Positions 3,918-39,661 of a stretch of DNA of 64,000 nt are shown piece by piece. Position 1 is the first letter of the stretch, and each line of letters begins with the position of its first letter. The position numbers were made by a program, and so were the translations under genes. The DNA is from Candidatus Methylomirabilota bacterium (GTDB taxonomy: Bacteria > Methylomirabilota > Methylomirabilia > Rokubacteriales > CSP1-6): contig DATAOC010000040.1 of NCBI GenBank assembly GCA_036265915.1, forward strand, positions 10,571-74,570, read 5' to 3'. The notes below the pieces were generated by a model, which did not search any database, was not told the origin of the DNA, and saw only the letters and a program-made list of their open reading frames with translations.

Positions 3918-4886
3918 ATGGCGCGCATCCTCGTCACCGGCGCCGCCGGATTCGTCGCGGTCAACATCGCCCGCGCTCTGGCCGCGCGCGGTCATCACGT
4001 CGTCGGCTTCGATCATCGCGCCGCCGACGAGGCTGCCCGCGCCCACGCGGGCGCCAGCGTGGGCTGGCTGATCGGCGACGTGCGTGACGGTCCCGCTCTC
4101 GCGCGCGCCATCAAGACGCACGCGATCGACGTGCTGGTGCACGCGGCGGCGGTCACCGCCACCACGCCGGAGTGGGAGCGCGAGCGCGCCGCCGACGTCA
4201 TCGGCGTGAACGTGCTCGGCACGATCGCCGCGCTGGAAGCCGCTCACGCGGCCGGGGTAGGACGCATCATCGTGCTCAGCTCGGCGAGCGCGGTCGGTCG
4301 CCGCGATCCGGGCGAGCCGTTCATCCCGGAGGGCGCAGCCGCGGCGCCCGGCGACCTGTACGGCATCTCCAAGCGCGCGCTCGAGATGGTGGCCAACCGG
4401 CTGGCCGAGCTGTACGCCGCCCACGTCGTGCTCGTGCGCCTGTCCCAGCCGTATGGACCGCTGGAGCGGCCGACGCCCGACCGCGCGGCGCTGTCGCCCA
4501 TCACCGACTGGATGACGGCGGCCCACGAGGGGCGATTCCTCACCACCCCGAGCCTCGAGCTCGCCAAGGACTGGATCTACATCGACGACGTCGGCGAGGC
4601 GTTCGTCCGGCTCGCGGAGGCCGGCGAGCTGCGGCACACGCTCTACAATCTCGGTCTCGGCGAGAACGTCACCGTGCGCGCGGTGATGGACGAGATCCGT
4701 CGCGCGTGGCCCCGCATCGAGGTGAGCGTCATGCCGAACTGGCGGCCGAATCCCAATCTCGCCGAGGATCGTCTGCGGCCGCCGCTCGAGATGACGCGCC
4801 TGGCGGCCGACGTCGGCTTCCGTCCTCGCCACACGATCGCCGACGGAATTGCCCGCTACGCGGAGTGGCTGCGCGGCGGGCGCTAG
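3918..4886 (+). CDS. NAD-dependent epimerase/dehydratase (SDR, extended type)
   Basis: MARILVTGAAGFVA Rossmann motif. YGISK catalytic YxxxK. Confidence 0.85.
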   Translation: MARILVTGAAGFVAVNIARALAARGHHVVGFDHRAADEAARAHAGASVGWLIGDVRDGPALARAIKTHAIDVLVHAAAVTATTPEWERERAADVIGVNVLGTIAALEAAHAAGVGRIIVLSSASAVGRRDPGEPFIPEGAAAAPGDLYGISKRALEMVANRLAELYAAHVVLVRLSQPYGPLERPTPDRAALSPITDWMTAAHEGRFLTTPSLELAKDWIYIDDVGEAFVRLAEAGELRHTLYNLGLGENVTVRAVMDEIRRAWPRIEVSVMPNWRPNPNLAEDRLRPPLEMTRLAADVGFRPRHTIADGIARYAEWLRGGR

Positions 4887-5614
4887 GCGCGCGCGAACAG
4901 CCGTCCGAAGCCGTGGATGGGCTCGCGAGCGGCGAGGACGCGCAGTGCCGACCAGATCGTCGCCTGGTTCGAGGTCACGACCGGCTTGCCCGTCCGCCGC
5001 TCCAGCGCGTCGATGGCCTCGACGGCGCGCCACGCGGTGCATGAGCACAGCAGCGCGTCGGCGTCCGGCCGGCACGCGCGCGCCGCGAAGTCGACCACCG
5101 ACTCCGGGGTCTGGTCGTTGATACCCTGGTTGCCCGAAGCCGCCGCCTCCGGATCGCCGTCGACGTTGAGCACCTCGAAGCCGGAGGCCTCGAGATACGC
5201 GCGCAGCCGCCGGTTGTTCCAGTCGGGGTACGGCGTCGCCACCGACAGGCGTCGCGCGCCGAGCGTCCGCAGGGCATCGACCACCGAGGGCGTGGTCGCC
5301 ACCGCCGGCACACCCGCCTCTCGCGCGATCAGCGCCAGCATGTCCCGATCCCAGCCGGGACCCTTGTAGAACGAGCCGGTCGTGCATCCGTAGGCGATCA
5401 CGTCGACGCGCGCGGTGGCCAGGTAGCGCGCGCCTGACTCGATCTCGTCGTTCATGCGCTTGTAGGCGTCGTCGCCGTTGGCGTCGTTGGTCATCCACAG
5501 CCGCTGGCCGTGCACGGTCACGCCGCGCGGCACGACGAGATTGAAGTCCGCCTCGCACGTGGTGTTGGTGGAGGGCACCATCACGCCAATGCGTCGCCGC
5601 ACGCCGGAAGCCAT
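4883..5614 (-). CDS. Asp/Glu/hydantoin racemase superfamily protein (maleate isomerase / arylmalonate decarboxylase-like)
   Basis: 243 aa. RIGVMVPSTNTTCE...YGCTTGSF...LCSCTAWRAVE, the two-Cys architecture of this family. Confidence 0.75.
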   Translation of the reverse strand: MASGVRRRIGVMVPSTNTTCEADFNLVVPRGVTVHGQRLWMTNDANGDDAYKRMNDEIESGARYLATARVDVIAYGCTTGSFYKGPGWDRDMLALIAREAGVPAVATTPSVVDALRTLGARRLSVATPYPDWNNRRLRAYLEASGFEVLNVDGDPEAAASGNQGINDQTPESVVDFAARACRPDADALLCSCTAWRAVEAIDALERRTGKPVVTSNQATIWSALRVLAAREPIHGFGRLFARA

Positions 5615-5635: not shown

Positions 5636-6106
5636 TCAGTCCTGGAAGCCGACGAGCCGCCAGGCGTCGCCGAGACGGCGCGCCACCTCGGGCTCGCCCT
5701 GCCACGAGAGCACCGTGACCCAGCCGAGCAGCGGAAGACGCCCCGTCACCTCGCCGGTCGTGTAAACCCATGCTGCGCCGTCGACGACCTCGACGCGGTC
5801 CACCCGGACGCTCGCCCGCAGCGCCTCGTACAGCGAGTACAGCGTGACCAGGTGCTGACGCACGTCGGGCTTGGTGATACCGCCGCTGCGGTAGTTGTCG
5901 GCGAGGTACGCGAGCACACCGCCGCTGTCGCGGGCGACGAAACGTCGGCGCGCGTCCTCCACCAGCGCGCGCAGCTCTTCGGTGGTGCTCGCGGAGGCCG
6001 GCGTCGCGACGCGCGGCGTGCTGGGGCTGGCGAGCCCGGCCGGCGGCGCCACCAGCACGGCGAGCACGGCGAAGGCAGCGACGGCGAGCGCGGCGGATCG
6101 TCTCAT
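5636..6106 (-). CDS. Secreted NTF2/SnoaL-like (DUF4440-like) protein
   Basis: N-terminal signal peptide (MRRSAALAVAAFAVLAVLVAPPAG) followed by a small alpha+beta domain. GC3 bias. Confidence 0.55.
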   Translation of the reverse strand: MRRSAALAVAAFAVLAVLVAPPAGLASPSTPRVATPASASTTEELRALVEDARRRFVARDSGGVLAYLADNYRSGGITKPDVRQHLVTLYSLYEALRASVRVDRVEVVDGAAWVYTTGEVTGRLPLLGWVTVLSWQGEPEVARRLGDAWRLVGFQD

Positions 6107-6141: not shown

Positions 6142-7335
6142 TCAGACGACGCGGGCGCGGCGCAGCTGCTCGATGTCGGCCGGCGTGTAGCCGGCCTCGG
6201 CGAGGATCTCGTCGGTGTGCTCACCGAGCGTGGGCGGCTCGCGGTCGATGCTCGGGCTGCCGTGGGCCAGGCGGAAGCCCGCGCCCACGAGCCGGAGCCG
6301 TCCGTAGCGCGTGTCGACGTCCTGGAGCACGTCCCGTGACTCGAGCTGCGGATGCTTCACGATCTCGTCGATCTTCCACACCGTGGCGCACGGCACGTCG
6401 GCGGCCGTGAGGCGCGCCTCCCACGACTTCGGCTCGTCCTTCGCGAGGGCGGCCTCGATGACCTCGCGCAGGGCCGGCTCGTTGTCGGTGCGCGCCCGCC
6501 AGTCCTTGAAGCGCGGGTCGTCGAGGGCGTCGGCGCGGCCGATGGTCCGCATCAGGCTCGCGAACTGCTTCTCGGTGAGCACGGCGAGGACGAGGTAGCC
6601 GCTGCCGGCGCGGAAGCGGTTGGCGGTCGGCTTGCGGCTCACGGAGCCGTTGCCGATCTGCTTCTGCTCGATCCCGGCCACCGTGTACTCGGACACGGGG
6701 CCGGGAATGAACGCCAGCGCGGCGTCGAGCATGGCCACGTCGACGAACTGACCCCGGCCCGTATGCGTGCGCTGGTAGAGCGCGCTGGCGACCGCGAGGG
6801 CGGCCGTGACGCCGCCGATGGTGTCGCAGATGGCGAAGCCCGCGCGCATCGGGCCGCCCGACGGCTCGCCGGTGATCGACATGATGCCCGACATCGCCTG
6901 CAGCTTGCCGTCGAAGGCGGCCGTCGTCCGTTCGGGGCCCGTGTGGCCGAAGCCGGATACGGAACAGTAGATCAGGCGCGGATTGACGGCGGCGAGCGCG
7001 TCGTAGCCGAGCCCGAGCCGGTCCATGACGCCCGGACGGAAGTTCTCCCACACGACGTCGGCGGTCGGCACCAGGCGCTTGACGACCTCCACCGCTGCCG
7101 GCTGCCGCAGATCGAGCGTGATGCTGCGCTTGTTCGCGTTGACGGCCAGGAACGACGACGCCATCTTGCGCTCCGCCCACTCCTTGCTGATCAGCAGGTG
7201 GCGCGACTCGTCGCCCTCGTGTGATTCGATCTTGACGACGTCGGCACCGAGAAGAGCGAGCTGGTACGTCCCGTAGGGACCGGCGAGATAGCGCGTGAAG
7301 TCGAGGATGCGGACGCCCGCGAACGGCTTGCTCAT
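6142..7335 (-). CDS. Family III CoA-transferase (CaiB/BaiF type)
   Basis: MSKPFAGVRILDFTRYLAGPYGT...DVVKIES N-terminal signature and ...CSVSGFGHTGP. Its ATG (7335..7333) overlaps the upstream gene's TGA (ATGA). Confidence 0.9.
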   Translation of the reverse strand: MSKPFAGVRILDFTRYLAGPYGTYQLALLGADVVKIESHEGDESRHLLISKEWAERKMASSFLAVNANKRSITLDLRQPAAVEVVKRLVPTADVVWENFRPGVMDRLGLGYDALAAVNPRLIYCSVSGFGHTGPERTTAAFDGKLQAMSGIMSITGEPSGGPMRAGFAICDTIGGVTAALAVASALYQRTHTGRGQFVDVAMLDAALAFIPGPVSEYTVAGIEQKQIGNGSVSRKPTANRFRAGSGYLVLAVLTEKQFASLMRTIGRADALDDPRFKDWRARTDNEPALREVIEAALAKDEPKSWEARLTAADVPCATVWKIDEIVKHPQLESRDVLQDVDTRYGRLRLVGAGFRLAHGSPSIDREPPTLGEHTDEILAEAGYTPADIEQLRRARVV

Positions 7336-8237
7336 GCCTGCTCGCGCTTGGCCCTGGCCACGGCCTTGATGTCATCGAACTCGCGGCGCCGCTCAGCGAT
7401 CTGCTCGGGCGTCATGCGATCGAGGTTCGAGAAGTCGAGCTTCCAGGCCGCGTCGTCATGCCAGCGCAGCGACGACTGCACCGTCGTGCGCGCGGCCGGT
7501 GCGCTCTCCAGCACCCGCAACGCCAGCTCCAGCGTGAACGCCTGCGACGGCCGGTCGAATGGCCGTCCGGCAGAGTTGCCGAGCGGGAAGTCGCTGAAGA
7601 GGAAGCGCGGCACCCCGCAGTACTCGACGATGTCCTTGGCGCAGCCCATGATGACCGTCGGCACGCCGTTCGCCTCCAGGTGTCGCGCGACCAGACTGAC
7701 CGTCTGGTGGCAGACGGGTCAGGTCGGGACGAGGAGAGCGGCATCGGCGCCATCCTCCCGGCACCGCTCCAGCAGGCTCGGCGCGTCGACCTCCATGGTC
7801 ACGCGCTGGCTGCGATTCGTGGGGGCGCCGTGCAGCCGCGGCGTGAGCGCGCCCAGGCGGCCGCGCTTGACCGCCTGCTGCAGCTCCGCCAGCGGCAGCC
7901 ACGTGTTCGGATCCTCGGCCGTCGTGTGCACGCGATCGTAGCCGACGTGCGAGATACGCAGGTCCGGGATGGTCTCGGTGGACTCCGAGTAGACCTTGTA
8001 GAACTTGGCGGCGGCGTTGTACGGCGCGCCTGGGCCCTGCTCGCCGGCGCCCGGCTGAAAGGGCGCCGCGGTGGTGATCAGCGCGAGCCGCGCCTCGGCG
8101 AGTGGCCGACGCAGCGGCGAAAACGGCACGTCGTCGAAATGCGCCCAGCGATAGGCGCCGTACCCGAGCCGCAGATAGTAGTCGCGCGTGCGCTGCATGT
8201 ACGGAATCGGCACGTCATGCTCGGCAGCGAACGCCAT
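7332..8237 (-). CDS. GrdB/PrdB-like reductase (glycine/sarcosine/betaine/D-proline reductase selenoprotein-B family). Candidate selenoprotein with an in-frame TGA at 7719..7721 read as Sec
   Basis: ORFs 7719..8546 and 7332..7664 are in the same frame and are separated only by TGA. SD AAGGAGG lies 5 nt before ATG 8237. The downstream piece has no start or SD (the listed 'M' is GTG). GC3 bias is continuous across the TGA. Read-through gives ...ALLVPT-U-PVCHQTV... (UxxC). A stem-loop sits 11 nt after the UGA. The family call is from memory. Confidence 0.6.
7690..7708 (-). ncRNA. Putative bacterial SECIS-like stem-loop (mRNA element) for the TGA at 7719..7721
   Basis: Minus-strand RNA ACCAGAC-GGUCA-GUCUGGU: 7-bp stem, 5-nt loop containing G and U, beginning 11 nt 3' of the UGA. 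An alternative mutually exclusive hairpin is CCGUCUG-CCAC-CAGACGG. Confidence 0.45.
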
Positions 8238-13498: not shown

Positions 13499-13553
13499 CG
13501 GAGCACCGGCCCGCGCGCTTGACCGAGTGCGGCAGGATGGCTAGGCTGCCGGC

Positions 13554-15146
13554 ATGATCGTCAAGGGCGCGTGGCCGGACGTCAGCATCCCCGAGGTGCC
13601 GATCACGGAGTACGTGCTGCGCCACGCGGCGCGGCTGCGTGACAAGCCGGCCATGATCGACGGCCCGAGCGGACGCACGCTCACCTACGGCCAGCTCGAG
13701 GACAGCATCCGTCGGGTGGCGACCGCCCTGTCGCGGCGCGGATTCCGCAAGGGCGATGTCTTCGCGATCTACAGCCCGAACCTGCCGGAATACGCGGTGA
13801 TCTTCAACGCGGTGGCCAGCCTCGGCGGCGTGAACACGACCGTCAATCCGCTGTACACGGCCGGCGAGCTGGCCAACCAGCTGAAGGACTCCGGCGCGCG
13901 CTTCCTGATCACCGTGCCGGCGTTCCTCGACAAGGCGCGCGAGGCCGCGGCCGCCGTCGGCCTCACCGAGGTGTACGTGTTCGGCTCCGCGGAGGGCGCA
14001 CGACCGTTTGCCGAGCTGCTGGAGGCGCCGCCGACGCCGCCCGTGGTGCGGATCGATCCCCGGCGTGACGTGGTGGCGCTGCCGTACTCGAGCGGCACCA
14101 CCGGGTTGCCCAAGGGCGTCATGCTGACGCACTACAACCTCGTCGCCAACCTGAGCCAGTGCGAGGGCGCGCGGGACTTCGACGGCTTCAAGGAGTCCGA
14201 CGTCATCATCGCCGTGCTGCCGTTCTTCCACATCTACGGCCTCGTGGTGATCATGAAGCTCGGTCTTTGCCAGGGCGGCACGATCCTCAGCATGCCCCGC
14301 TTCGACTTCGCCGAGTTCCTGGCCGCGATGCAGAAGTACCGGGTGAGCATCGCGCCGCTGGTGCCGCCCATCGTGCTCGGCATGGTCAAGAGCCCGGCTG
14401 TCCGCCGGGAGGACCTCGCCAGCGTGCGTCTCGTCTTCTCGGGCGCAGCGCCGCTGGGCGAAGACATCGCCCGCGCGCTCAGCACGAAGCTCGGCTGCCC
14501 CGTCGTGCAGGGCTACGGGATGACGGAAGCCAGCCCCGTCACGCACCTGAGCCCGACGAAGAACGCCCCGTTCCGGCCGGGCTCGATCGGCCTCGTGGTG
14601 CCGAACACGGAGGTGAAGCTGGTGGCCATCGACGGCGCCGGCGAGGTCGGCCGCGGCGAGGAAGGCGAGCTCTGGATCCGCGGGCCGCAGATCATGAAGG
14701 GCTATCTGAACCAGCCCGAGGAGACGGCGGCCGCCATCGATCCGGAAGGCTGGTACCACACCGGCGACGTCGGGTACGTGGACGACCAGGGCTGGTTCTA
14801 CATCGTCGACCGCACCAAGGAGCTCATCAAGTACAAGGGCATGCAGGTGGCACCGGCCGAGCTGGAGGCGCTGCTGCTCACCCACCCGGCCGTGCTCGAC
14901 GCCGCCGTCATCCGCAAGGCCGACGAGGAAGCGGGCGAGGTGCCCAAGGCGTTCGTCGTCCTGAAGGCCGACGCCGAGTCGCGCGCGATCACCGCCGAGG
15001 CGGTCATGGCGTTCGTTGCCGAGCGGGTGGCGCCGCACAAGCGCATCCGTCATCTGGAGTTCACGGACCAGATCCCGAAGTCGGCGTCCGGCAAGATCCT
15101 GCGGCGTCTGCTCGTGCAGAAGGAGACGGCGGCGGCGCGGCGGTGA
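13554..15146 (+). CDS. AMP-binding acyl/aryl-CoA ligase (4-coumarate-CoA ligase-like)
   Basis: YSSGTTGLPKGV, GYGMTE and ...YKGMQVAPAELE... adenylate-forming signatures. Confidence 0.9.
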   Translation: MIVKGAWPDVSIPEVPITEYVLRHAARLRDKPAMIDGPSGRTLTYGQLEDSIRRVATALSRRGFRKGDVFAIYSPNLPEYAVIFNAVASLGGVNTTVNPLYTAGELANQLKDSGARFLITVPAFLDKAREAAAAVGLTEVYVFGSAEGARPFAELLEAPPTPPVVRIDPRRDVVALPYSSGTTGLPKGVMLTHYNLVANLSQCEGARDFDGFKESDVIIAVLPFFHIYGLVVIMKLGLCQGGTILSMPRFDFAEFLAAMQKYRVSIAPLVPPIVLGMVKSPAVRREDLASVRLVFSGAAPLGEDIARALSTKLGCPVVQGYGMTEASPVTHLSPTKNAPFRPGSIGLVVPNTEVKLVAIDGAGEVGRGEEGELWIRGPQIMKGYLNQPEETAAAIDPEGWYHTGDVGYVDDQGWFYIVDRTKELIKYKGMQVAPAELEALLLTHPAVLDAAVIRKADEEAGEVPKAFVVLKADAESRAITAEAVMAFVAERVAPHKRIRHLEFTDQIPKSASGKILRRLLVQKETAAARR

Positions 15147-16276
15147 AGCGCCTGCTCCATCCCTTCGTTCTGGTCGTCACCGCCATCCTGGTCGTCGGCT
15201 ACGCGTACCTCGCGTGGCGACTCACGGCGACGCCGCTCGCCCGGATCGCGCTGGCACTGCCGTTCGCGTTGATCTGGACGGTGCCGGTCGTCTACTGGAT
15301 GGGCGATCGCGAGCACGTCGGCGCCGTGCACGAGATCGTCCACGCGAGCAGTTACCTCTGCATGGGCTGGCTGAACTTCGTGTTGGTGCTGACGGTGGCC
15401 CGCGACGCGCTGCTGCTCCTCACCGCGCTGCCGGTGTCGGCCGCGGCGGCGCACGCGGCCCTCCGGGATGACGGCGTCGGCTGGGTGCTGGTCGGTTCCG
15501 TGATCGCGCTTGCGCTCGGGGTCCTCACCGCGCGGCGGGGTCCGCACGTCCGCCGCGTCGACATCCGCGTCGACGGCCTGGCGCCCGATCTCGATGGGCT
15601 GCGCATCGCGCAGATCAGTGACCTGCACGTCGGGCCCACGATCGGGTCCGCCTACGTGCAGCGCGTCGTCGACATGACCCGCGCGCTGGCGCCCGATCTG
15701 GTCGCGCTCACCGGCGACATCGTCGATGGCTCCGTTCCGCGCCTGGCCCCGCACGTGGCGCCGCTGGGAGCGCTGGCCGGCGATCGCGCGTTCCTCGTGC
15801 TCGGCAACCACGATTACTACGCAGGCGCCGAGCGCTGGACCGCGCACTTCGAGACGATGGGATTTCGCGTGCTGCGCAACTCGCACGTCACCATCGCGCG
15901 CGGTGCGGCGCGCCTGCTGATCGGCGGCGTGATCGACTTCGCCGCGCGGATGCGGGACGCCTCCGCACGCCCGCGGCCGGACCTCGCGCGCGACGCGGCG
16001 CCGGCCGCCTACCGGGTCCTGCTCGCGCACAACCCGAAGATCGCCCCGCAGGCCGAGGAGGCGGGGTTCGACCTGCAGCTGTCGGGGCACACGCACGCCG
16101 GGCAGTTCTTCCCGTGGACGCTGGCCGTGCGCCTGATCCATGCGCCACACGCGGCCGGCCTGTCACGGCGCGGCCGCATGTGGGTCTACGTCAGCGCCGG
16201 CACCGGGACATGGGGACCGCCCGTGCGCTTCGGCACCACGCCGGAGCTGACGCTGCTGCGACTGGTCGCGACCTGA
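15143..16276 (+). CDS. Membrane-anchored metallophosphoesterase (calcineurin-like)
   Basis: GTG start overlapping the upstream stop (GTGA). N-terminal TM helices. ISDLHVG, GDIVDG, GNHDY and GHTHAG phosphoesterase motifs. Confidence 0.8.
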   Translation: MKRLLHPFVLVVTAILVVGYAYLAWRLTATPLARIALALPFALIWTVPVVYWMGDREHVGAVHEIVHASSYLCMGWLNFVLVLTVARDALLLLTALPVSAAAAHAALRDDGVGWVLVGSVIALALGVLTARRGPHVRRVDIRVDGLAPDLDGLRIAQISDLHVGPTIGSAYVQRVVDMTRALAPDLVALTGDIVDGSVPRLAPHVAPLGALAGDRAFLVLGNHDYYAGAERWTAHFETMGFRVLRNSHVTIARGAARLLIGGVIDFAARMRDASARPRPDLARDAAPAAYRVLLAHNPKIAPQAEEAGFDLQLSGHTHAGQFFPWTLAVRLIHAPHAAGLSRRGRMWVYVSAGTGTWGPPVRFGTTPELTLLRLVAT

Positions 16277-16285
16277 GGCGACGCG

Positions 16286-16813
16286 CTACGAGGCGGCGGC
16301 GCGCCGTGAGGGAGGCGGCGCGGCCACGCGCGCCGGCGGCTTGATGGCGCCGAGTCGCCGGTGATCCCAGTTCGGACAGCCGACGGCGTGGGCCACCACG
16401 ATCGACGTGAGATCGTCGTTGCAGCGAGGGCAGGCGAGCCCGCGCTCGGTGCGCACGACCCAGCCGAGACGGTACGTCTCCTGACAGCGCTCGCACGGGA
16501 CCGCGTGCTGGCTGCAGTAGAGGAACAGGATCGCGCGCGCATCGATATCCAGCACGTCGACGTGCTCGATCTCGCGCGGCACGATGATCCACCGGCCCGC
16601 CGCCAGCGCCGAGCTGCGGTCGCCGGGCGCCCGCCGCTCTTCGCGCGGGCTCGCCGCCGGCGCTGCGTCCAGGCGGCTCCCCGGCTCGGACGCGCGGCGG
16701 TCGAGCACCACGCGAATGCCCGAGCCGTCGAGCGCTTGCTGGAGACGACGGCACGCCGCCAGTTCGGCGCGAGGTACGACGACCAGGAGCGACGGTGAGG
16801 GTTGTGGGTTCAT
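16286..16813 (-). CDS. Hypothetical protein with a four-Cys zinc-ribbon-like C-terminus
   Basis: SD GGAGG 5 nt before ATG 16813. CERC...CPRC pair. No family recognised. Confidence 0.45.
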   Translation of the reverse strand: MNPQPSPSLLVVVPRAELAACRRLQQALDGSGIRVVLDRRASEPGSRLDAAPAASPREERRAPGDRSSALAAGRWIIVPREIEHVDVLDIDARAILFLYCSQHAVPCERCQETYRLGWVVRTERGLACPRCNDDLTSIVVAHAVGCPNWDHRRLGAIKPPARVAAPPPSRRAAAS

Positions 16814-16976
16814 GGGGTCCTCCGTTTCCACATCCAGACTACGAACTCGGTGCGCGCGCGACGCTGCTTTTTTCGCGGCCGTCGACGACGTGCCGAAGGG
16901 GCACGTGGCGACCGCCCGCTGCCCAGCCGTTGTTCACATGTCTCTCATCGTGCCATGCGGCGCCGATCGCTGTACG

Positions 16977-18602
16977 ATGCGCGCGATGACCAGCCCCGCG
17001 CCGCGCAGTCGGACGCTTGGCGATCTGCTCGACGAGATCGCGCAGACCCGGGCCGACGCCGATGCGGTGATCTATGCCGGCGAGCGGCTCACCTGGGCCG
17101 CCCTTCGCGCGCGCGTCGACGCCCTCGCGCGCGCGCTGCTGGCGGCCGGCGTGCGTCGCGGCGACCGCGTCGCCGTGCTGCTTCCGAACCGTCCCGAGTG
17201 GCTCGTGGCGGCGTTCGCCAGCGCCAGGATCGGCGCGGTCACCGTCGGCGTGAGCACGTTTTCGGCGCCGCCCGAGATCGCGTGGACGATCGCGCATTGC
17301 CGTCCGGCGGCGATCGTGACCATGGAGAGCTTCCGCGGACGCAGCTACCTGGCGCCGCTCTACGCGGCGTGTCCCGAGCTCGCGGCATCGACGCCGGGCG
17401 CGCTGCGCAGCGAGACGCTGCCCGAGCTGCGCGCGGTCATCGCCATCGACGCCCGCCGCCACGATGGCGTGGCGCGGCTCGATGACTTCATGACGCGCGC
17501 CTCCGAGGCGCCCGCCCGGGCGCTCGCGGACGCGCAGCGCGCCGTCACCGCGCCCGACCCGTGCTTCATCCTCTACACGTCGGGCTCGACGGCCACGCCC
17601 AAGGGCGTGGTGCTGCATCACGGCAGCCTCGTCGACAACGGCTTCGGCATCGGCGAGCGGATGCGGCTGACCGGCGCCGATCGCGTGTGGCTGGCGGTGC
17701 CGCTGTTCTGGTCCTTCGGCTCCGCCAACGCGCTGCCCGCGCTGCTGACGCACGGCGGTTCGCTCGTGCTCCAGGATGCGTTCGAGCCGGGCGAGGCGCT
17801 GGCGCTGCTGGATGAGGCGCGCTGCACCGTGTACTACGGCATGCCGAACATGGCGCGCGCGATGCTCGAGCATCCCGACCGTCGGCGCCGCGCGCTGGCC
17901 ACGATGCGCACGGGGCTCACGATCGGCCTGCCCGAGGATTTCGAGATGACGATGGACGCGGTGGCGGCGCGTGAGCTGTGCAACGTCTACGGCTCCACCG
18001 AGACCTACGGCAACTGCGCGGTGACCGACGCACACGACGACGTCACGCTCCGGCGCGAGAGCCAGGGCCGTCCGCTGCCCGGGATGACGATCCGCGTGGT
18101 CGAGCCCGAGACGGGCCGGCCGTTGCCCGCCGGCGAGGTGGGGGAGTTTCGCGTGAAGGGCCATGTGACGTCCGGCTACTACAACGACGCCGAGCAGACG
18201 CGCGCCGCGTTCGACGCCGAGGGCTTCTTCGTCACCGGCGACCGGGGGCTGATCGGCGACGACGGGCGCGTGCGGTTCCGCGGACGGCTCAAGGAGATGA
18301 TCAAGACGGGCGGCATCAACGTGGCGCCGCTGGAGGTCGAGGCCGTGCTGCTCGCCCACGTCGCCGTCAAGCAGGCGTACGTGGTCGGTGTGCCCGACCG
18401 CGTGCGCGGCGAGGTCGTGGTGGCTGCCGTCGAGTTGCACGACGGCGCGCCCGTGTCGGCGGAGGCGCTGGCCGCCCACTGCCGGCAGCGCCTGGCCGGC
18501 TACAAGGTGCCGGCACGCTTCGTGTTCCGGAAGGCCGACGAGTTTCCTCGCACGCCGACAGGCAAGGTGCAGAAGCCCCGGCTGCGTGACGAGCTCGCCT
18601 GA
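16977..18602 (+). CDS. AMP-dependent synthetase/ligase (acyl-CoA synthetase family)
   Basis: YTSGSTATPKGV, YGSTE, ...GDRG..., ...PTGKVQK. Start taken at the first ATG after the junk N-terminus (16977 or 16986). Confidence 0.85.
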   Translation: MRAMTSPAPRSRTLGDLLDEIAQTRADADAVIYAGERLTWAALRARVDALARALLAAGVRRGDRVAVLLPNRPEWLVAAFASARIGAVTVGVSTFSAPPEIAWTIAHCRPAAIVTMESFRGRSYLAPLYAACPELAASTPGALRSETLPELRAVIAIDARRHDGVARLDDFMTRASEAPARALADAQRAVTAPDPCFILYTSGSTATPKGVVLHHGSLVDNGFGIGERMRLTGADRVWLAVPLFWSFGSANALPALLTHGGSLVLQDAFEPGEALALLDEARCTVYYGMPNMARAMLEHPDRRRRALATMRTGLTIGLPEDFEMTMDAVAARELCNVYGSTETYGNCAVTDAHDDVTLRRESQGRPLPGMTIRVVEPETGRPLPAGEVGEFRVKGHVTSGYYNDAEQTRAAFDAEGFFVTGDRGLIGDDGRVRFRGRLKEMIKTGGINVAPLEVEAVLLAHVAVKQAYVVGVPDRVRGEVVVAAVELHDGAPVSAEALAAHCRQRLAGYKVPARFVFRKADEFPRTPTGKVQKPRLRDELA

Positions 18603-18664
18603 GCTCCCAGCGACAACGGCGCGGCGTTGACAGCGCGGCGCCGAGGCTGCTACACCCGGTCGGG

Positions 18665-19648
18665 ATGTCGAGCCCTCCCCGAGTCGTCATGGACCCCGGC
18701 CAGACGTACCGCCGTCTCGTACCGGTCGATCACCTGGCATCGCGCGTGACGCCGACCGACGACGTCTACGTCATCGCCCACATGGGGATCGCCCGCGTGG
18801 ACGTCGCGGCGTGGCGGCTGCGCGTCGACGGCCTCGTGGAGCGCCCGCTGGAGCTCGACTACGCCATGCTGACGCAGCTGCCGGCCACGGAGGTGACCGC
18901 CGTGCTCGAGTGCTTCGGCAACCCGGTCGAGCCGGACGTGGCGACGCGGCGGGTCGGCAACGTGGTCTGGCGGGGTGTGCGCCTCGGCGAGCTGCTCGAG
19001 CGCGCAGGCGTGAGCGCCGAAGCGCGCTACGTGTGTCCGGAGGGCCTGGACTCCGGGACGTTTGCGGGCGTCCACAGCGAGCGCTACGTCAAGGACTTGC
19101 CGCTGGCGCGCGCACTGGACGCCGACGTGCTGGTGGCGTGGGCGATGAACGGCGCGCCGCTGTCGCCGGAGCACGGCTTTCCGGCGCGCGTGTTCGTGCC
19201 CGGCTACTTCGGCACCAACGCGGTGAAGTGGCTCTGCCGGCTGACCCTCGCTGCCGAGCGTCCGGAGAGCCTCTTCACCACCCGGCTCTACAACCGCCGC
19301 GTCGACGGCGAGAGCCGTCCGGTGCGCGAGCTCGACGTCCACGCCGTCATCGTCGCGCCGGCCGACGGCGCCACGCTGCGGCCCGGGCGCCACACGATCA
19401 CCGGCTGGGCGTGGAGCGCCTGGCCCGTGCGCGCGGTGGAGGTCAGCACCGACGATGGCGCGCGGTGGCAGGACGCGGAGGTGACGCCGCGCGGCGCCGA
19501 CCATCAGTGGCAGCGGTTCACGTACGCCTGGAACGTCGCGACGCCCGGCCGCTACGCCGTGCACGCCCGCGCCGCGGATGCGCGCGGACGCGTGCAGCCG
19601 GCGGCCGGCCGCAATCGCACCCACAGCATCAGCGTCGCCGTGGCCTGA
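18665..19648 (+). CDS. Molybdopterin-dependent oxidoreductase, sulfite-oxidase family (Moco-binding + dimerisation domains), cytoplasmic
   Basis: ...LECFGNP..., ...GYFGTNAVKWL..., plus a C-terminal Ig-like domain. No signal peptide. Confidence 0.8.
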   Translation: MSSPPRVVMDPGQTYRRLVPVDHLASRVTPTDDVYVIAHMGIARVDVAAWRLRVDGLVERPLELDYAMLTQLPATEVTAVLECFGNPVEPDVATRRVGNVVWRGVRLGELLERAGVSAEARYVCPEGLDSGTFAGVHSERYVKDLPLARALDADVLVAWAMNGAPLSPEHGFPARVFVPGYFGTNAVKWLCRLTLAAERPESLFTTRLYNRRVDGESRPVRELDVHAVIVAPADGATLRPGRHTITGWAWSAWPVRAVEVSTDDGARWQDAEVTPRGADHQWQRFTYAWNVATPGRYAVHARAADARGRVQPAAGRNRTHSISVAVA

Positions 19649-22106: not shown

Positions 22107-22814
22107 TCAGGTGCCGAGGTACGCGTGCTGCACGCGCGGGTCGGCTAGCAGCGTGTCGCGCTCACCGACCAGCACCACGCGCCCGGTCTCGAGCACGTAG
22201 CCGCGATCGCACAGCTCGAGCGCTTCGACCACGCGCTGCTCGACGAGCAGGATGGTGAGTCTGCGCGCGCGGCGGATGGCCGCGATCGCCTCGAAGATCA
22301 GCTCCACCACGCGCGGCCCGAGCCCCTGCGACGGCTCGTCGAGCAGCAGCAGATCCGGCCGAGCCATCAGCGCGCGGCCGATGGCGAGCATCTGCTGCTC
22401 GCCGCCCGACAGCGAGCCCGCGAGCTGCGTACGCCGCTCTCGGAGCACCGGGAAGAGCGCATAGACGACGTCGAGGCTCTCGGCCCGCTGCGGGCGCGCC
22501 GCCGGGCGGAAGGAGCCCATCTCGAGATTTTCCAGCACGCTCATCGAGGGAAACACGCGGCGCCCCTCCGGCACGTGGGCGATGCCGAGCCGCGCGCGGG
22601 CGTGCGCGCGAAGCGCGCCGATGTCGGCGCCGCGGTACTCGATGCGCCCGGCCGCCGGCGCGACGCCGCCGCCGATCGCCCGCAGCAGCGTCGTCTTGCC
22701 AGCGCCGTTCGGCCCGACGATGGTGACGAACTCGCCCTCGCCGACGGCGAGCGACGCGTCGACGATCGCGTGGAGCCCACCGTACGAGACGCTAAGCCCG
22801 GAGACCGTCAGCAT
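22107..22814 (-). CDS. livF: HAAT-family ABC ATP-binding protein (LivF-like)
   Basis: Walker A GPNGAGKTT. LSGGEQQ signature. Short LivF-type length. Confidence 0.9.
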   Translation of the reverse strand: MLTVSGLSVSYGGLHAIVDASLAVGEGEFVTIVGPNGAGKTTLLRAIGGGVAPAAGRIEYRGADIGALRAHARARLGIAHVPEGRRVFPSMSVLENLEMGSFRPAARPQRAESLDVVYALFPVLRERRTQLAGSLSGGEQQMLAIGRALMARPDLLLLDEPSQGLGPRVVELIFEAIAAIRRARRLTILLVEQRVVEALELCDRGYVLETGRVVLVGERDTLLADPRVQHAYLGT

Positions 22815-24555
22815 GGCGAAGCCAGCGCTTGCCGAGGTAGGCCTCGATCACGGTGGGGTCGCGCACGACGTCGTTCGGCGCGCCCTCCGCGATGCGGCGG
22901 CCGTGATCGAGCACGACGAGCCGATCGACCAGCGGCACCACCGCGTACATCGTGTGCTCGATGATGACGACAGTCACGCCGGACTCGCGCAGTCGTCGGA
23001 CGAGCGCGGCCATCGTCTCGACGCCGTCGCGGGAGAGCCCGGCCAGCGGCTCGTCCAGCAGGATGAGCTCCGGGACGCTGGCCAGGCAGCGGGCCAGCTC
23101 CATCAGCCGCAGGTCCAGCGTGGTGAGGCCGGACGGAACGTCGTCGGCGCGCGACGTGAGCCCGACCGTCTCCAGCGCCGCGAGCGCGCGCTCGCGCGCG
23201 GCGGCGGTCGCCCGCTCGTGCGCGAAGGCGCCGACCATCACGTTGTCGAGGACGGTGAGCTGAGGAAACGTCCGGACGACCTGGAACGTGCGGCCGATGC
23301 CGCGACGGCAGACGGCGCTCGGCCGCAGGCCGACGATGCTCTCGCCACGGTACCGCACGTCGCCCGCGTCGGGTCCGAGGAAGCCGTTGAGCACGTTGAA
23401 GAGCGTCGTCTTGCCGGCGCCGTTCGGGCCGATGACGCCGAGAACCTCGCCTGTGCGCACGGTGAAGCTCACGTCGTCGAGCGCGTGCAGACCGAGGAAC
23501 GCGCGCGACACACCGGCCACCTCGAGCAGCGTGCCGCCCGGCGCGGCCGACGCGCGGCCGGGCGGCGCCGCGACGGCGTGCGGCTTCGCCATCGCGGGCG
23601 CGCGCTCGCCGACGGGCCGCCGCCGGCGGAGCGCGTGCAGGCGCCAGTAGATGCCCTCGGGGGCGAACAGCGTGACGACGACCAGCGCGGCGCCGTACAC
23701 GACGCCCTGGATGCCGGGCAGCCGGTCGCCGACGGTGGCGTCCAGCGTCTCGCTCAGCGGCACCATGATCACGGCGCCGATGAGCGGCCCCCATTTGCTG
23801 CCGATGCCGCCGACGAGGCAGACGACGAGCGTCTGGACGATGACGAGGACGCCGAAGACGGCCTCCGGCGTGACGACGAACAGGATCGCGTGCGCGTAGA
23901 TGGCGCCGATCACGGCGGCGGGCGCGGCGCTGAGCATGTAGGCGAGCATCTTGGCGCGGAACGTGTCGACGCCGGCGGCCTCGGCCGCCTGCTCGTTGGC
24001 GCGCAGCGCGCGCAGCGCGTAGCCGAGTCGCGAGCCCTCGATCCAGTCCGACAGCAGCAGGGTGCCGGCGAGCGCGGCCAGCGCGAGCAGGTCGTAGACG
24101 CGCGGATCCCCGAACTGCATGAACGCGGCCGGGCGGTCGCGCACCATGGGTATCGACACTTCCTGGTAGCCGAGGTAGTCCATCACGATGCGGAAGATGA
24201 GCGGATAGGCGAGCGTGGCGAGCGCGAAGTAGATTCCCGCCAGGCGGAAGGTCGGCAGCCCGATGAGGACGGCGGCCAGCACCGCCGCCAGCGCGCCCAC
24301 GAGCATGCCGAGCCACGGGCTGAGCCGTGCGGTGACGACGAGCAGCACCGTGACGTACGCCCCGATCCCGAAGAACGCCTGATGGCCGAACGACGTCTGG
24401 CCCGCATAGCCGCTGATGATGTTCCAGGCGAGGCCCATGGTGGCCCACACGAGGACCAGCGTGAAGATGCGGTGGTGGTAACGCTCGCCGAGGGCGAAGG
24501 CAACGGCCACGCCGAGCAGCACCACCAGCGCCATCGGCAGCAGCCGCCGCATCAC
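22792..24555 (-). CDS. Fused HAAT-family permease-ATPase (LivM-LivG fusion)
   Basis: N-terminal LivM-type TM domain followed by a LivG-type ATPase (GPNGAGKTT...LAGLS...). Confidence 0.9.
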   Translation of the reverse strand: MMRRLLPMALVVLLGVAVAFALGERYHHRIFTLVLVWATMGLAWNIISGYAGQTSFGHQAFFGIGAYVTVLLVVTARLSPWLGMLVGALAAVLAAVLIGLPTFRLAGIYFALATLAYPLIFRIVMDYLGYQEVSIPMVRDRPAAFMQFGDPRVYDLLALAALAGTLLLSDWIEGSRLGYALRALRANEQAAEAAGVDTFRAKMLAYMLSAAPAAVIGAIYAHAILFVVTPEAVFGVLVIVQTLVVCLVGGIGSKWGPLIGAVIMVPLSETLDATVGDRLPGIQGVVYGAALVVVTLFAPEGIYWRLHALRRRRPVGERAPAMAKPHAVAAPPGRASAAPGGTLLEVAGVSRAFLGLHALDDVSFTVRTGEVLGVIGPNGAGKTTLFNVLNGFLGPDAGDVRYRGESIVGLRPSAVCRRGIGRTFQVVRTFPQLTVLDNVMVGAFAHERATAAARERALAALETVGLTSRADDVPSGLTTLDLRLMELARCLASVPELILLDEPLAGLSRDGVETMAALVRRLRESGVTVVIIEHTMYAVVPLVDRLVVLDHGRRIAEGAPNDVVRDPTVIEAYLGKRWLRHADGLRA

Positions 24556-25442
24556 ACGGCGCGCAGTCGCCGGCCGAACAGCCCTTGCGGTCTCAGGTAG
24601 AGCACCAGCAGGAAGGTGACGAACACGCCGACGTTCTGCAGCTGGAACGGCAGCACGAGCAGCGTGAGCGACTGCACGAGCCCGATGAGCAGTCCGCCCG
24701 CGAACGCGCCGGGGATGGAGCCGAGCCCGCCCAGCACGACCGCGACGAACATCAGCACGATGAAGTTCACGGCCACCGTCGGCTCGATCGGATGGTACGT
24801 CGCGAGCAGGCCGCCGGCGGCGGCGACGAGGGCGATGCCGACGCCGAAGGCGAGGCCGTGCATGGCGCGGACATCGATGCCCTGGTAGGCAGCCGCCTCC
24901 GGATCGTCAGCGGCGGCGCGCAGCGCCTTGCCGAGATCTGTGCGCGTGAGGAAGACGTACACGCCGGCGGCCAGCACCAGCGCCATGGCGAACGCGTACG
25001 AGCGCGCCTGGTTCAGCAGCAGGCCGCCCACGGCGAAGGCGTGCGTGGCGTACGCGGTCCGGATGCCGCGCGGCATCGGCGTCAGCAGCATGGTGGCGCC
25101 GTTGGTGACGATGAGCGACAGCCCGAGGGTGAGGATCAGCTGCGCGTCCATCAGCCGCTGGGCGTCGCCGCCACCGGTGACGTGAACCAGCAGCGTCCGG
25201 TGCACGAGCACGCCGAGCAGGAAGAACGGCGGGATCACGACGAGCGCGCCGAGGAGCGGATCGACGCCGGCCAGGGCCAGGAAGTACGTGACGTACATCC
25301 CGAGCATCATGAAATCGCCCTGAGCGAAGTTGACCACGCGCATGACGCCGAAGATCAGCGCCAGCCCGATGCTCATGAGCGCGTAGACGCCGCCCACGAG
25401 CAGGCCCGTCACGACGTACTGCGCGAGATCGGCCGCCGCCAC
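24552..25442 (-). CDS. livH: HAAT-family permease (LivH-like)
   Basis: 296-aa polytopic membrane protein with LivH architecture. 4-nt overlap with the next gene. Confidence 0.9.
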   Translation of the reverse strand: MAAADLAQYVVTGLLVGGVYALMSIGLALIFGVMRVVNFAQGDFMMLGMYVTYFLALAGVDPLLGALVVIPPFFLLGVLVHRTLLVHVTGGGDAQRLMDAQLILTLGLSLIVTNGATMLLTPMPRGIRTAYATHAFAVGGLLLNQARSYAFAMALVLAAGVYVFLTRTDLGKALRAAADDPEAAAYQGIDVRAMHGLAFGVGIALVAAAGGLLATYHPIEPTVAVNFIVLMFVAVVLGGLGSIPGAFAGGLLIGLVQSLTLLVLPFQLQNVGVFVTFLLVLYLRPQGLFGRRLRAV

Positions 25443-25448
25443 CCGCCG

Positions 25449-26663
25449 CTACTTGGCGCCGTGCCAGTTGGGCTTGCGCGTCGCGTACTCCGCCGGCACC
25501 ACCGTGAACGGCTCGCCGTTCTGCCACTGCACGATGATCGGCGCCGCCCCGATGCGCCGGCCGCGCTCGTCGTACTTGATGCGCCCGGGCGCCAGGGTGG
25601 TGGCGGCGGGTCCCGTTCGCAGATCGAGCTTGGCCACCGCGTCGCGGATGGCCCGGGGATCGGCGGACTTCGCCATCTCCGCCGCTTCCTTGATGATCCA
25701 GACGTGCGCGTACGCCATGAGCGGATCCTGCGTCATGAACGGCTCGCCCGTGCGCTCGGTGAAGCGCTTGACCAGCTCCTCCTGACCCTTCAGCGGGTGC
25801 GCGGCGACCACCGACATGATGTTGTCGAGCAGCTCCTTGCCGACGGTCTTGACGTACTCGGGCGTGACCAGCCAGGCGCCGACGCCCTGGATCGGCACCT
25901 TGACGCCGAACTCCTTCACTTTCTGCAGCACCTGGATCGAGTCCGGGAAGTTGGTGGCGCCGTAGAAGACGATGTCGGGCTGCGTTCCGCGAAGCTTCTG
26001 CACGATGGCGGTGGCGTCGGCGAGCGGCGGCGTCCACACCTCGTCCACGACGATCTCGATGCCCTTGGCCTTGAGCAGCTTCTCGCGCAGCGGCTTGAAG
26101 AAGAACACGGTGGCCGCGGTGTTGTCGCCGACGATGGCGGCCTTCCGGATCGGCTGGTTGTTGCGCTTCGCGAGGTCGACCACGAGGTCCAGCGCCTGCT
26201 CGGCCTGCACGGAGGACACGGGGCTCGTCTGGAACGTGTACTTGAAGCCGCGCTCCGTGATCGAGTCCGCGTAGGAGAGCGTGAACCACGGCACCTCGAG
26301 GCGCTCGGCGACCTCGGTCACGCCGAGCGTGAACGAGCTGAGCCAGGCGCCGATGCCGGCGCTGATCTTCTCGCGCGTCAGCGCGCGCTGGGCCGCGCTC
26401 ACGGCCTTCTCCACGCTATCGCCGGCGTCCGCCTCGCGCAGCACCAGCTTGGCGCCGCCGAGGGCCTTGATCCCGCCCTGCGCGTTGATCTCGGCGATCG
26501 CCATCTCGGCGCCCATCTTCTTGAGCTGCCCCTGGCGCGCCCAGCGCCCGGAGAGCGGCACCACCAGCGCGATCTTCACGTCGTCGGCCGCGCGGGCGGT
26601 GAGGGGAAGCAGCGTCATCGGCGCCGCCAGCAGCACGGCGAGCAGGAGCGCGAGTGGCTTCAT
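25449..26663 (-). CDS. HAAT-family periplasmic substrate-binding protein (LivK-like)
   Basis: Signal peptide MKPLALLLAVLLAAPMTLLPLTARA. SD AGGAG before ATG 26663 (confirmed by counting 404 aa back from the stop). Confidence 0.9.
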   Translation of the reverse strand: MKPLALLLAVLLAAPMTLLPLTARAADDVKIALVVPLSGRWARQGQLKKMGAEMAIAEINAQGGIKALGGAKLVLREADAGDSVEKAVSAAQRALTREKISAGIGAWLSSFTLGVTEVAERLEVPWFTLSYADSITERGFKYTFQTSPVSSVQAEQALDLVVDLAKRNNQPIRKAAIVGDNTAATVFFFKPLREKLLKAKGIEIVVDEVWTPPLADATAIVQKLRGTQPDIVFYGATNFPDSIQVLQKVKEFGVKVPIQGVGAWLVTPEYVKTVGKELLDNIMSVVAAHPLKGQEELVKRFTERTGEPFMTQDPLMAYAHVWIIKEAAEMAKSADPRAIRDAVAKLDLRTGPAATTLAPGRIKYDERGRRIGAAPIIVQWQNGEPFTVVPAEYATRKPNWHGAK

Positions 26664-26674
26664 CGATCGTCTCC

Positions 26675-27430
26675 TCAGGAGTAATTCGGGGTGCGTTTCT
26701 CGAGAAAGGCGCGGACGCCCTCCTTGAAGTGCGCGCTGCGCCGCACGCGATCGCCGAGCTCCTGCTCGAGCGCCTCGCGGGACATCGCGTGGTCCGCGAT
26801 GGTGCTGCTGATCTGCTGCTTCACCGCTTGCACGGCGGCCGGGCTGTTGGCCGCGATCGTCTCCGCCGTCTCCAGCGCCCACGCCATGAGCCGGTCGGCC
26901 GGCACCACGCGGTTCACCAGCCCGATGCGTGCGGCCTCCGTCGCATCGATGAGCCGTCCGGTCAGCAGGAGCTCCATCGCGTGCACGTGGCCGATTTGCT
27001 GCACGAGCTTCACGGTGGCGCCGCCGAACGGATAGATCGACCAGCGGACTTCCGGCAGTCCGAAGCGCGCATGCGGCGCGGCCGCTCGCACGTCGGTCGA
27101 GAGCAGCAGCTCGAGCCCGCCGGCCACGCAGTCGCCGTTGACGGCCGCCACGATCGGCTTGGCGTACGGCCGGTTCTTGAGCAGCGCGTGGCTGACCATG
27201 CGCGCCATCGCCGGCTCGGCGGAGAGATCGCCGCTCACGTCGGCGCCCGCGCTGAACGCGCGCTCGCCCGCGCCGGTCAGCACGATGCACCGGCAGGCGT
27301 CGCGCTCGAGGCGATCCCACAGGGCGGCCAGCTCGGCCATCATCGCGCGCGGCATCGCGTTGCGGCGCGGCTGGTTGTCGATGGTCACCACGACGACGTG
27401 GGGCCCGTGCGGCTCCGCGCGCAGCTCCAT
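26675..27430 (-). CDS. Enoyl-CoA hydratase/isomerase (crotonase fold)
   Basis: 251 aa. ...GAGERAFSAGADV... oxyanion-hole motif. ATG 27430 overlaps the upstream stop. Confidence 0.85.
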   Translation of the reverse strand: MELRAEPHGPHVVVVTIDNQPRRNAMPRAMMAELAALWDRLERDACRCIVLTGAGERAFSAGADVSGDLSAEPAMARMVSHALLKNRPYAKPIVAAVNGDCVAGGLELLLSTDVRAAAPHARFGLPEVRWSIYPFGGATVKLVQQIGHVHAMELLLTGRLIDATEAARIGLVNRVVPADRLMAWALETAETIAANSPAAVQAVKQQISSTIADHAMSREALEQELGDRVRRSAHFKEGVRAFLEKRTPNYS

Positions 27431-38702: not shown

Positions 38703-39624
38703 TGGCCTCCCCCATGAGCCCGCGCGGGCGGAAGACGAGCACCACGATGAGAATCGAGAAGACGATGGCGTTCGTCCAGCGCGCGGAGACGTACTGGTCG
38801 CTCCACGCCGACAGGAAGCCGATCAACAGCCCGCCCAGCGCCGCACCGCTCATGCTGCCGATGCCGCCGAGGACGGCCGCCGTGAACGCGCGCAGACCGG
38901 CCTGGTAGCCCATCCACCACTGGCCGATGTTGTAGTACATGCCCTGAATGATCCCGGCCGCGCCCGCGAGCGCACCGCCGACGAAGAAGGTGATGAGGAT
39001 CATGCGCTCGACGTCGATGCCCATCGCCTGTGCGGTCTCGCGGTCCTGGGCCGTGGCGCGCATGGCCTTGCCCCAGCGCGTGTGCGTCACGAAGTAGTGC
39101 AGGCCGAGCATGAGGGGCACGGTGGCGACCACGACCAGCACGTCCTTCGTGGTGATGAAGATGGCGGAGTCCACGCCGAACCACTCGCGCAGGATGTCGA
39201 CCGACGGGAACACGTCAGGATAGGCGATCGGGGCCGGTCCCTTCCACAGCAGCGCCACGTTCTCCAGCATGAACGACACACCGATGGCGGTGATGAGCGG
39301 CGCCAGCCGGGTGGATCGCCGCAGCGGGCGGTAGGCCACGCGGTCGATGGCGACGTTCAGCGCCGCCGTCGACAGCATCGTGAGCAGGAAGACCAGCGGC
39401 AAGACGGTGAGGAGCTGCCAGCCGGCGAGGGCGCCGCTCACGCCGAGCAGCGTGAACCACATCAGCGAGATGAACAGCCCCAGCATGAAGACGTCGCCGT
39501 GGGCGAAGTTGATGAGCTCGATGATCCCGTAGACCATCGTGTAGCCGAGCGCGATCAGCGCAAAGACCGCCCCGCGGGTCAGGCCGTTGATGCTCTGCTG
39601 AACCAGAACTTCCCACCAGGTCAT
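38686..39624 (-). CDS. livH: HAAT-family permease (LivH-like), second copy
   Basis: Start at ATG 39624 (MTWWEVLVQQSINGL...). The upstream part of the ORF is an Arg/Ala junk translation of the repeat region. Confidence 0.85.
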   Translation of the reverse strand: MTWWEVLVQQSINGLTRGAVFALIALGYTMVYGIIELINFAHGDVFMLGLFISLMWFTLLGVSGALAGWQLLTVLPLVFLLTMLSTAALNVAIDRVAYRPLRRSTRLAPLITAIGVSFMLENVALLWKGPAPIAYPDVFPSVDILREWFGVDSAIFITTKDVLVVVATVPLMLGLHYFVTHTRWGKAMRATAQDRETAQAMGIDVERMILITFFVGGALAGAAGIIQGMYYNIGQWWMGYQAGLRAFTAAVLGGIGSMSGAALGGLLIGFLSAWSDQYVSARWTNAIVFSILIVVLVFRPRGLMGEASADKA

Positions 39625-39630
39625 ATCGAG

Positions 39631-39657: not shown

Positions 39658-39661
39658 ACCC

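Follow-up and report, generated by a model that had tools for sequence, protein, structure and literature searches.

A probable GrdB/PrdB-superfamily selenoprotein with a covarying stem-loop in a Candidatus Methylomirabilota bacterium

The window analysed here is a 64,000-nucleotide (nt) stretch of Candidatus Methylomirabilota bacterium DNA (assembly GCA_036265915.1, contig DATAOC010000040.1, positions 10,571 to 74,570). Judged from its sequence, positions 8237-7332 of the minus strand very probably form a single gene for a 301-residue selenoprotein of the GrdB/PrdB superfamily, and the in-frame TGA at 7721-7719 is, with high confidence, its selenocysteine (Sec) codon. As the initial annotation of this DNA had noticed, two minus-strand open reading frames (ORFs) share one frame here; the sequence and the ORF table agree that from the ATG at 8237 to the stop at 7334-7332 this TGA is the sole interruption. 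The start signals described for the 5' piece can be read directly from the sequence, with ATG at 8237-8235 preceded, across a 5-nt spacer, by the Shine-Dalgarno sequence AAGGAGG at 8249-8243. The N-terminal 172 codons (8237-7722) align with homologues from about residue 5 and match the Pfam GRDB domain over residues 30-172. The TGA takes position 173, as the first residue of a U-P-V-C motif that is aligned with cysteine (Cys) in some relatives and with a conserved TGA in others. The C-terminal 128 codons (7718-7335) follow in the same frame up to the stop TGA at 7334-7332, with a G+C content at third codon positions (GC3) of 0.91 and homology in all relatives.

The read-through product has 301 residues counting the TGA position, and its sequence around residue 173, ...DAALLVPT-U-PVCHQTVSLVAR, contains the ...ALLVPT-U-PVCHQTV... 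stretch originally reported. Coding bias is continuous over the TGA, as had also been claimed, with a GC3 of 0.92 in the 50 codons upstream and 0.94 in the 50 codons downstream. UGA is otherwise an ordinary stop codon in this genome. This gene and its upstream neighbour both end in it, as do further genes of the window, which argues against reassignment. A screen of the window for further in-frame TGA candidates returned only two ordinary gene junctions. Automatic gene callers, working on identical metagenome contigs, annotate the gene as two pieces of 172 and 105 residues and start the second at ATG 7649 (7649-7647). The downstream piece was said to have only a GTG for a start and no Shine-Dalgarno sequence; GTG 7664 is indeed its listed start, and the second half of that statement does not hold, as GGAGG (7677-7673) lies 8 nt upstream of it.

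Comparison with homologues argues strongly for read-through. A protein search gave at least 8000 candidates at E <= 0.001, and the best matches are full-length proteins of 300-318 residues with 67-75% identity. The TGA column is Cys in all 20 of the 20 closest full-length homologues (64-74% identity), where it is the first Cys of an invariant C-P-V-C-H-Q. Homologues do not terminate here: in at least 199 loci this codon is TGA (hereafter Sec-forms, as opposed to Cys-forms with TGC or TGT), with a homologous open frame on both sides. The DNA pattern TGA CCN GTN TGY CAY CAR N15 GCN MGN CAY YTN GAR, which occurs once in the window and not at all in shuffled sequences, matches at least 120 species genomes (one genome per species). 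They include Alpha-, Beta-, Gamma- and Deltaproteobacteria, Acidimicrobiales, Dehalococcoidia, Methylomirabilota/Rokubacteria, Binatia, Spirochaetales, Myxococcota and others. At every locus of these genomes an open, homologous frame flanks the TGA on either side, extending for about 160-200 codons upstream and about 125-135 codons downstream in loci uncut by a contig end. With the first codon of the pattern written as TGH, which allows TGA, TGC or TGT, the 119 matches listed from metagenome contigs comprise 79 TGA and 40 TGY. Across 240 loci the junction codon is only ever TGA, TGC or TGT, and in the homologues examined there is no gap at the junction.

Three independent assemblies of this organism, on contigs from different Joint Genome Institute samples, all retain the TGA. 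Relative to the window they show five differences, each of them located 3' of the TGA and synonymous when the frame is read through; two of the five fall between the TGA and the putative internal starts. The sequence downstream of the UGA is under purifying selection. The nearest relative at the DNA level (locus L154, 83% identity) is a Sec-form, and the closest named relatives are metagenome-assembled genomes (MAGs) of Rokubacteria/Methylomirabilota, with 73-76% identity in the selenoprotein and 79-84% in the neighbouring coenzyme A (CoA) transferase. Selenoproteins had been regarded in the initial annotation as uncommon in very GC-rich, non-clostridial genomes. This implied rarity fails for the present family, because it is among the most abundant selenoprotein families in environmental DNA (PMC1088965, PMC2398784) and 73 of the 199 Sec-form loci exceed 65% GC.

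The two forms are closely interleaved. Loci L219 and L145, and likewise L209 and L010, are pairs of a Cys-form and a Sec-form that are mutual nearest neighbours at 72-80% protein identity, and on this ground the sequences indicate that switching between Sec and Cys within the family has been repeated and recent. The residue before the Cys (7722-7724 in the window) is Asn in 38 of the 41 Cys-form loci among the 240 surveyed. Before the Sec it is L, V, N, S, M, T or I, with Thr in the window; either clade structure or codon-context selection at the UGA may lie behind the difference. One Sec-form homologue, in a MAG labelled Enterobacteriaceae, is found about 125 nt from a tRNA-SeC gene (L119:2267-2362).

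Shortly after the UGA the mRNA can form a putative selenocysteine insertion sequence (SECIS) hairpin at 7711-7687. Its 7-base-pair (bp) stem joins 7708-7702 to 7696-7690. At the apex stands the tetraloop GGUC (7701-7698), in which a G:C pair closes the GU, with the A at 7697 bulged, and two outer pairs (G-C and C-G) join 7711-7710 to 7688-7687. The hairpin ACCAGAC-GGUCA-GUCUGGU proposed from the letters alone is present at 7708-7690; its stem begins 10 nt after the UGA and not 11, as had been stated. This hairpin has a folding energy of -10.4 kcal/mol when folded alone (z = -3.45) and of -13.1 kcal/mol with the two outer pairs (7711-7687; z = -3.40), and in the 42 nt beginning at the UGA it is the minimum-energy fold (-18.9 kcal/mol, z = -2.39). 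In general, bacterial SECIS elements have a stem of 6-8 bp, and some 20 nt separate the UGA from a conserved G in the loop (PMC4605307). The geometry claimed for the window fits this description, with G20 and G21 (numbering the U of the UGA as position 0) lying 18-19 nt after the A of the UGA, and it also fits the broader range of about 16-37 nt for a conserved apical-loop G(U).

The same hairpin is carried by the Sec-forms, 10-12 nt after the UGA, as a 7-bp stem with an N-GU-N' tetraloop and a 3' bulge. Synonymous sites within it are frozen: position 20 is C in 87% of Sec-forms and position 23 G in 83%, G occupies position 25 in 100% and position 29 in 99-100%, and G21-U22 is kept in 97-100%, while third positions adjoining these sites vary freely. 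Position 26 is U in 95-96% of Sec-forms versus 7.5% of Cys-forms. In the Cys-forms these sites are relaxed (pair 19:25 in 55%, pair 20:23 in 30%) and the hairpin is absent. Covariation was tested with the structure ..........((.((((((((..).))))))).))....... on 100 distinct Sec-form sequences. Paired bases occupy 95.3% of the cells, versus 22-37% after shifting the partner 1-3 columns. Doubly changed, compensatory cells number 50, versus 13.5 +/- 2.9 in shuffles, and the covariation score is 0.209 versus 0.119; none of 500 shuffles reaches either observed value. Compensation is seen at pairs 14:30 (CG 62, UA 26), 17:27 (GC 84, AU 8), 18:26 (AU/UA) and 20:23 (CG 83, GC 9, AU 2, UA 1). Pair 20:23 closes the GU, which gives an N-GU-N' tetraloop at the apex with an unpaired purine after it. 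In the window this pair is G20:C23, a minority but compensated version that makes the loop GGUC, and at a hairpin site AGU is used for Ser in a 71% GC genome. The hairpin is conserved, covaries at four pairs and is specific to the TGA-forms. From the comparison of Sec- with Cys-forms, the family consensus reads UGA, 12 nt, CAGAC, N-GU-N', R, GUCUG.

A second hairpin, CUGACC.GUCUG / CAGAC.GGUCAG at 7695-7722 of the minus strand, contains the UGA and uses the same CAGAC arm as the SECIS. It was considered as a regulatory element and rejected: only 58% of Sec-forms keep its variable pair 8:17, and the Val-Cys and Gln-Thr codons dictate the rest, so that the structure looks like a by-product of them.

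Three explanations other than Sec insertion have to be weighed, and taken together they are improbable. In the first, a split gene, the cell would make a 172-residue N-terminal and a 105-110-residue C-terminal polypeptide, the latter from GTG 7664 or ATG 7649, that assemble non-covalently. The GGAGG 8 nt upstream of GTG 7664 would suit this arrangement, as would the 172- and 105-residue products that automatic callers give on identical contigs. However, the 19-24 codons that would be lost between the TGA and the internal starts (PVCHQTVSLVARHLEANGVPTV) rank with the most conserved in the family, and with them the split would discard the resolving Cys176. The two polymorphisms falling there are synonymous, the GGAGG simply spells conserved Leu-Glu-Ala codons, and in the homologues examined the junction codon is always TGA, TGC or TGT with no gap. 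We consider a split gene very unlikely. Decoding of the UGA by something other than Sec, either through its reassignment to Trp or Gly or through hairpin-stimulated near-cognate read-through with Cys or Trp, is more doubtful still. Downstream hairpins can stimulate read-through in general and Sec insertion here is a prediction, but UGA acts as a stop at the end of this gene, of the upstream gene and of other window genes. Moreover, the codon occupies the redox Cys position of a CxxC motif, where Sec and Cys classically replace each other, the hairpin shows SelB-type features in the form of an apical-loop GU some 20 nt from the UGA (PMC4605307), and the family is on record as a UxxC selenoprotein family (PMC2398784). 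A pseudogene, in which a recent TGC-to-TGA nonsense mutation in a Cys-form gene left the 128 downstream codons decaying, would need only a single C-to-A change in the Cys codon of the closest protein-database homologues and would accord with a genome whose Sec machinery is presumed, but we count it out as scarcely credible because the TGA is conserved over many species genomes and metagenome contigs (at least 199 loci in many phyla), and against it stand also the intact downstream frame with its GC3 of 0.91, the five synonymous polymorphisms out of five among the three assemblies, the Sec-form at the closest DNA-level relative, and a Sec-form-specific hairpin that includes the AGU Ser codon and the compensated G20:C23.

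Several results weigh against reading the TGA as a Sec codon in one continuous gene. The residual doubt about the codon is that the Sec machinery is unseen: Pfam scans of about 53 ORFs found no SelA, SelB or SelD in the window, and ARAGORN found no tRNA of any kind there, hence no tRNA-Sec. Signature motifs of SelA, SelD and SelB were likewise absent from the window and from 243 loci, a weak negative. On sequence alone, a separate start of the downstream piece behind its GGAGG is possible. When 3 nt upstream of the UGA are added to the fold, the competing UGA-containing hairpin is preferred, with z = -0.56 against shuffles. Because this upstream context favours a competing fold no better than shuffles, a single sequence is insufficient to establish the SECIS hairpin, and it is the comparison among sequences that validates it, not the window by itself. 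No SECIS match or other credible one was found in Rfam, either over the whole window at gathering thresholds or over 7600-7780 at E <= 10; the matches returned were to miRNAs and snoRNAs only and are due to chance. Sequence and profile searches of the PDB gave no solved homologue of the protein. An AlphaFold2 model, built from a 21-sequence alignment, is of moderate confidence (predicted local distance difference test score 63.8, predicted template-modelling score 0.68) and had no Foldseek match to the PDB at E <= 0.001. Our literature search found no experimental data on this subfamily.

The assignment to the GrdB/PrdB family made in the initial annotation stands at the superfamily level and goes no further. 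With Cys substituted for the stop, Pfam PF07355 GRDB is matched with 27.7 bits over residues 30-172, above its cut-off of 22, and the narrower family cut-offs are all missed. The best-scoring curated family is NCBIfam PrdB TIGR04483 (E = 3e-22, 205 of 238 profile positions aligned), at 79.2 bits against a cut-off of 300; TIGR01918, a selenoprotein B subfamily, scores 31.9 bits against 65.45 and GrdB TIGR01917 scores 31.2 bits against 602. The protein does not have the GrdB architecture of about 430 residues, being 301 residues long and matching only the C-terminal half of the profile. By the published tables it does correspond to the environmental 'PrdB' family with a UxxC motif, which carries pfam07355, is widespread outside the clostridia and includes Cys-forms. 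In the AlphaFold2 model, from which no fold inference is taken beyond local secondary structure, residue 173 lies between a strand (166-170) and a helix (177-189).

Directly downstream on the minus strand is a gene for a family-III (CaiB/Frc-type) CoA-transferase (6142-7335; Pfam CoA_transf_3, 387.6 bits), whose ATG overlaps the selenoprotein stop as ATGA. After a 35-nt gap comes a gene for a 156-residue protein with a hydrophobic N-terminus and no Pfam match (5636-6106, minus strand), seen only in contigs of the same organism and probably belonging to the selenoprotein operon. It is followed, 21 nt further on, by a gene of the arylmalonate decarboxylase / Asp-Glu racemase superfamily (4883-5614, minus strand; Amdase 128.7 bits, Asp_Glu_race 37.2 bits), apparently the last of the operon. 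Upstream, a gene for a protein with metallo-beta-lactamase, receiver and GAF domains (8284 to about 10100, minus strand) ends 46 nt before the selenoprotein gene and may be co-transcribed with the operon. An identical metagenome protein of this upstream gene has one Pfam record, Anti-Pycsar_Apyc1. The initial annotation had placed the selenoprotein gene outside any Grd/Prd operon, and the Pfam scans agree, as no Prd or Grd partners appear among the window ORFs: neither the PrdA pyruvoyl subunit, PrdC, PrdD/E or proline racemase near the gene, nor GrdA, GrdE, GrdC/D or thioredoxin system genes anywhere in the window.

Pairing with the CoA-transferase recurs in close relatives. Among loci with enough downstream DNA, 24 of the 51 in the clade of at least 60% identity (15 of 28 Sec-forms and 9 of 23 Cys-forms) have a family-III CoA-transferase as their immediate downstream neighbour on the same strand, and none of 109 more distant Sec-forms does. 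Near the latter, other neighbours recur, namely enoyl-CoA hydratase (14 loci), short-chain dehydrogenase/reductase (14), acyl-CoA synthetase/ligase (9) and acyl-CoA dehydrogenase (9), for example at L185, L039, L183 and L059. Representative sequences were inspected by eye to name these families; antisense shadow ORFs of the GC-rich DNA had contaminated an all-against-all clustering of the neighbour ORFs, from which only clear clusters were used.

Elsewhere in the window, positions 13545-19648 hold two AMP-binding acyl-CoA ligase genes and then a sulfite-oxidase-type molybdopterin oxidoreductase; together with the CoA-transferase, the ligases make the region rich in acid-activation enzymes. Two clusters of Liv-type (branched-chain amino acid) ABC transporter genes, each with fused permease-ATPase genes and a periplasmic binding protein, occupy 22107-27320 and 36729-41139. 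A regulator of 1181 residues, combining a double zinc ribbon, an adenylate/guanylate cyclase, an AAA ATPase and TPR repeats, is encoded at 54375-57920 on the minus strand.

A mechanism can be proposed by analogy with known systems. By the time the ribosome reaches the UGA at 7721-7719 it would have unwound the competing upstream hairpin, allowing the hairpin at 7711-7687 to form at the mRNA entrance. Following the canonical bacterial mechanism, SelB-GTP carrying Sec-tRNA(Sec) would then bind the exposed GU loop and deliver selenocysteine in competition with release factor 2; we infer that insertion in this organism is SelB-dependent. The product would have the active-site motif U-P-V-C, with Sec173 placed between a beta-strand and the N-terminus of a helix and three residues before Cys176, an arrangement usual for selenol/thiol redox pairs. 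On the model of GrdB and PrdB chemistry, the selenolate of Sec173 may attack a substrate carbon and Cys176 may resolve the adduct as a selenide-sulfide; these catalytic roles are inferred. The reaction would be a reductive cleavage or reduction, by analogy with PMC13188914 and PMC10838667, and the enzyme is predicted to be neither a D-proline nor a glycine reductase. Because the selenoprotein gene appears to be co-transcribed with a family-III CoA-transferase, a carboxylic acid or CoA-thioester on which that enzyme acts would be the most likely substrate. We tentatively suggest, as a possibility we hold to be well short of probable, that the selenoprotein and its translationally coupled CoA-transferase stand at the centre of a selenium-dependent reductive pathway, hitherto uncharacterised, of aerobic soil and ocean bacteria, acting on CoA-activated or carboxylic substrates. 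If so, the reaction would be unlike that of any Stickland reductase, and it would explain the environmental abundance of the family.

The selenoprotein family is not itself new. It has been known from environmental DNA since 2005, the window gene is a further member of it, and current understanding of selenoproteins is not overturned by the find. What goes beyond the literature consulted is the family SECIS consensus with its covariation, the failure of the protein to reach the PrdB and GrdB cut-offs, and the coupling to a CoA-transferase. For annotation, the 172- and 105-residue pieces should be joined through a Sec at residue 173, a correction that hundreds of MAG loci need as well; the SECIS consensus can be used to find and correct genes of this family. 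The label 'proline reductase' is probably wrong for this subfamily; it is doubtful because the locus and its relatives are without the other proline-reductase components and are linked to CoA-ester enzymes.

Compared with known systems, the hairpin resembles the SECIS elements of E. coli fdhF and Moorella thermoacetica fdhA, both of which share the loop GGUC and typically have an unpaired, bulged nucleotide beside the upper stem. As in those elements, a stem-loop follows soon after the UGA and exposes GU at its apex. The window element differs in that its bulge, A24, stands on the 3' side directly after the tetraloop and in that the family consensus loop is CGUG rather than GGUC; its binding by SelB is a prediction. 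Among GrdB-like proteins, FarB/FarE of Synergistota are candidate fluoroacetate reductive dehalogenases proposed to cleave a C-F bond alpha to the carboxyl group (PMC10838667), that is, selenoproteins of the GrdB family proposed to have been recruited to non-amino-acid substrates. Unlike the window protein, they are full-length GrdB/GrdE pairs, found in anaerobes, that feed the glycine-reductase system, and they have no CoA-transferase. GrdB, GrdF and GrdH themselves (TIGR01917/01918, NF040794/5) are homologous over their C-terminal half, at about profile positions 207-403 of some 431, and carry their Sec at the corresponding place of a UxxC(xxC) motif. Against these profiles, however, the window protein scores 31-38 bits (cut-offs 65-800), and it is without the N-terminal ~200 residues of GrdB.

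D-proline reductase PrdB of Clostridium sticklandii and C. difficile (TIGR04483) is a selenoprotein that carries out reductive C-N cleavage alpha to the carboxyl group (PMC13188914), and like the window protein it has Sec in a UxxC motif. The window protein is about 60 residues longer, reaches 79 bits where 300 are needed, and has a CoA-transferase for a neighbour instead of Prd genes. The closest counterpart is the environmental 'PrdB' family (Zhang, Fomenko & Gladyshev 2005; Zhang & Gladyshev 2008). As 'proline reductase PrdB' (pfam07355, UxxC) it was the third most abundant selenoprotein family of the Sargasso Sea, with 42 Sec-forms and 1 Cys-form (PMC1088965), and in the Global Ocean Sampling data, where 235 Sec-forms stand beside 110 Cys-forms, it ranked among the top selenoprotein families (PMC2398784); Anaeromyxobacter and Geobacter, too, are recorded as having 'proline reductase' selenoproteins (PMC1794560). 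In those papers the family is named by homology only, and neither the pairing with a CoA-transferase nor the present SECIS consensus is described. It shares with the window protein the same Pfam domain and the same UxxC motif, its hosts are aerobic and non-clostridial, and its Sec-forms rival or outnumber the Cys-forms, as they do among the metagenome matches listed here (79 versus 40). Domain, motif and distribution all point to the window gene and this environmental family being one and the same.

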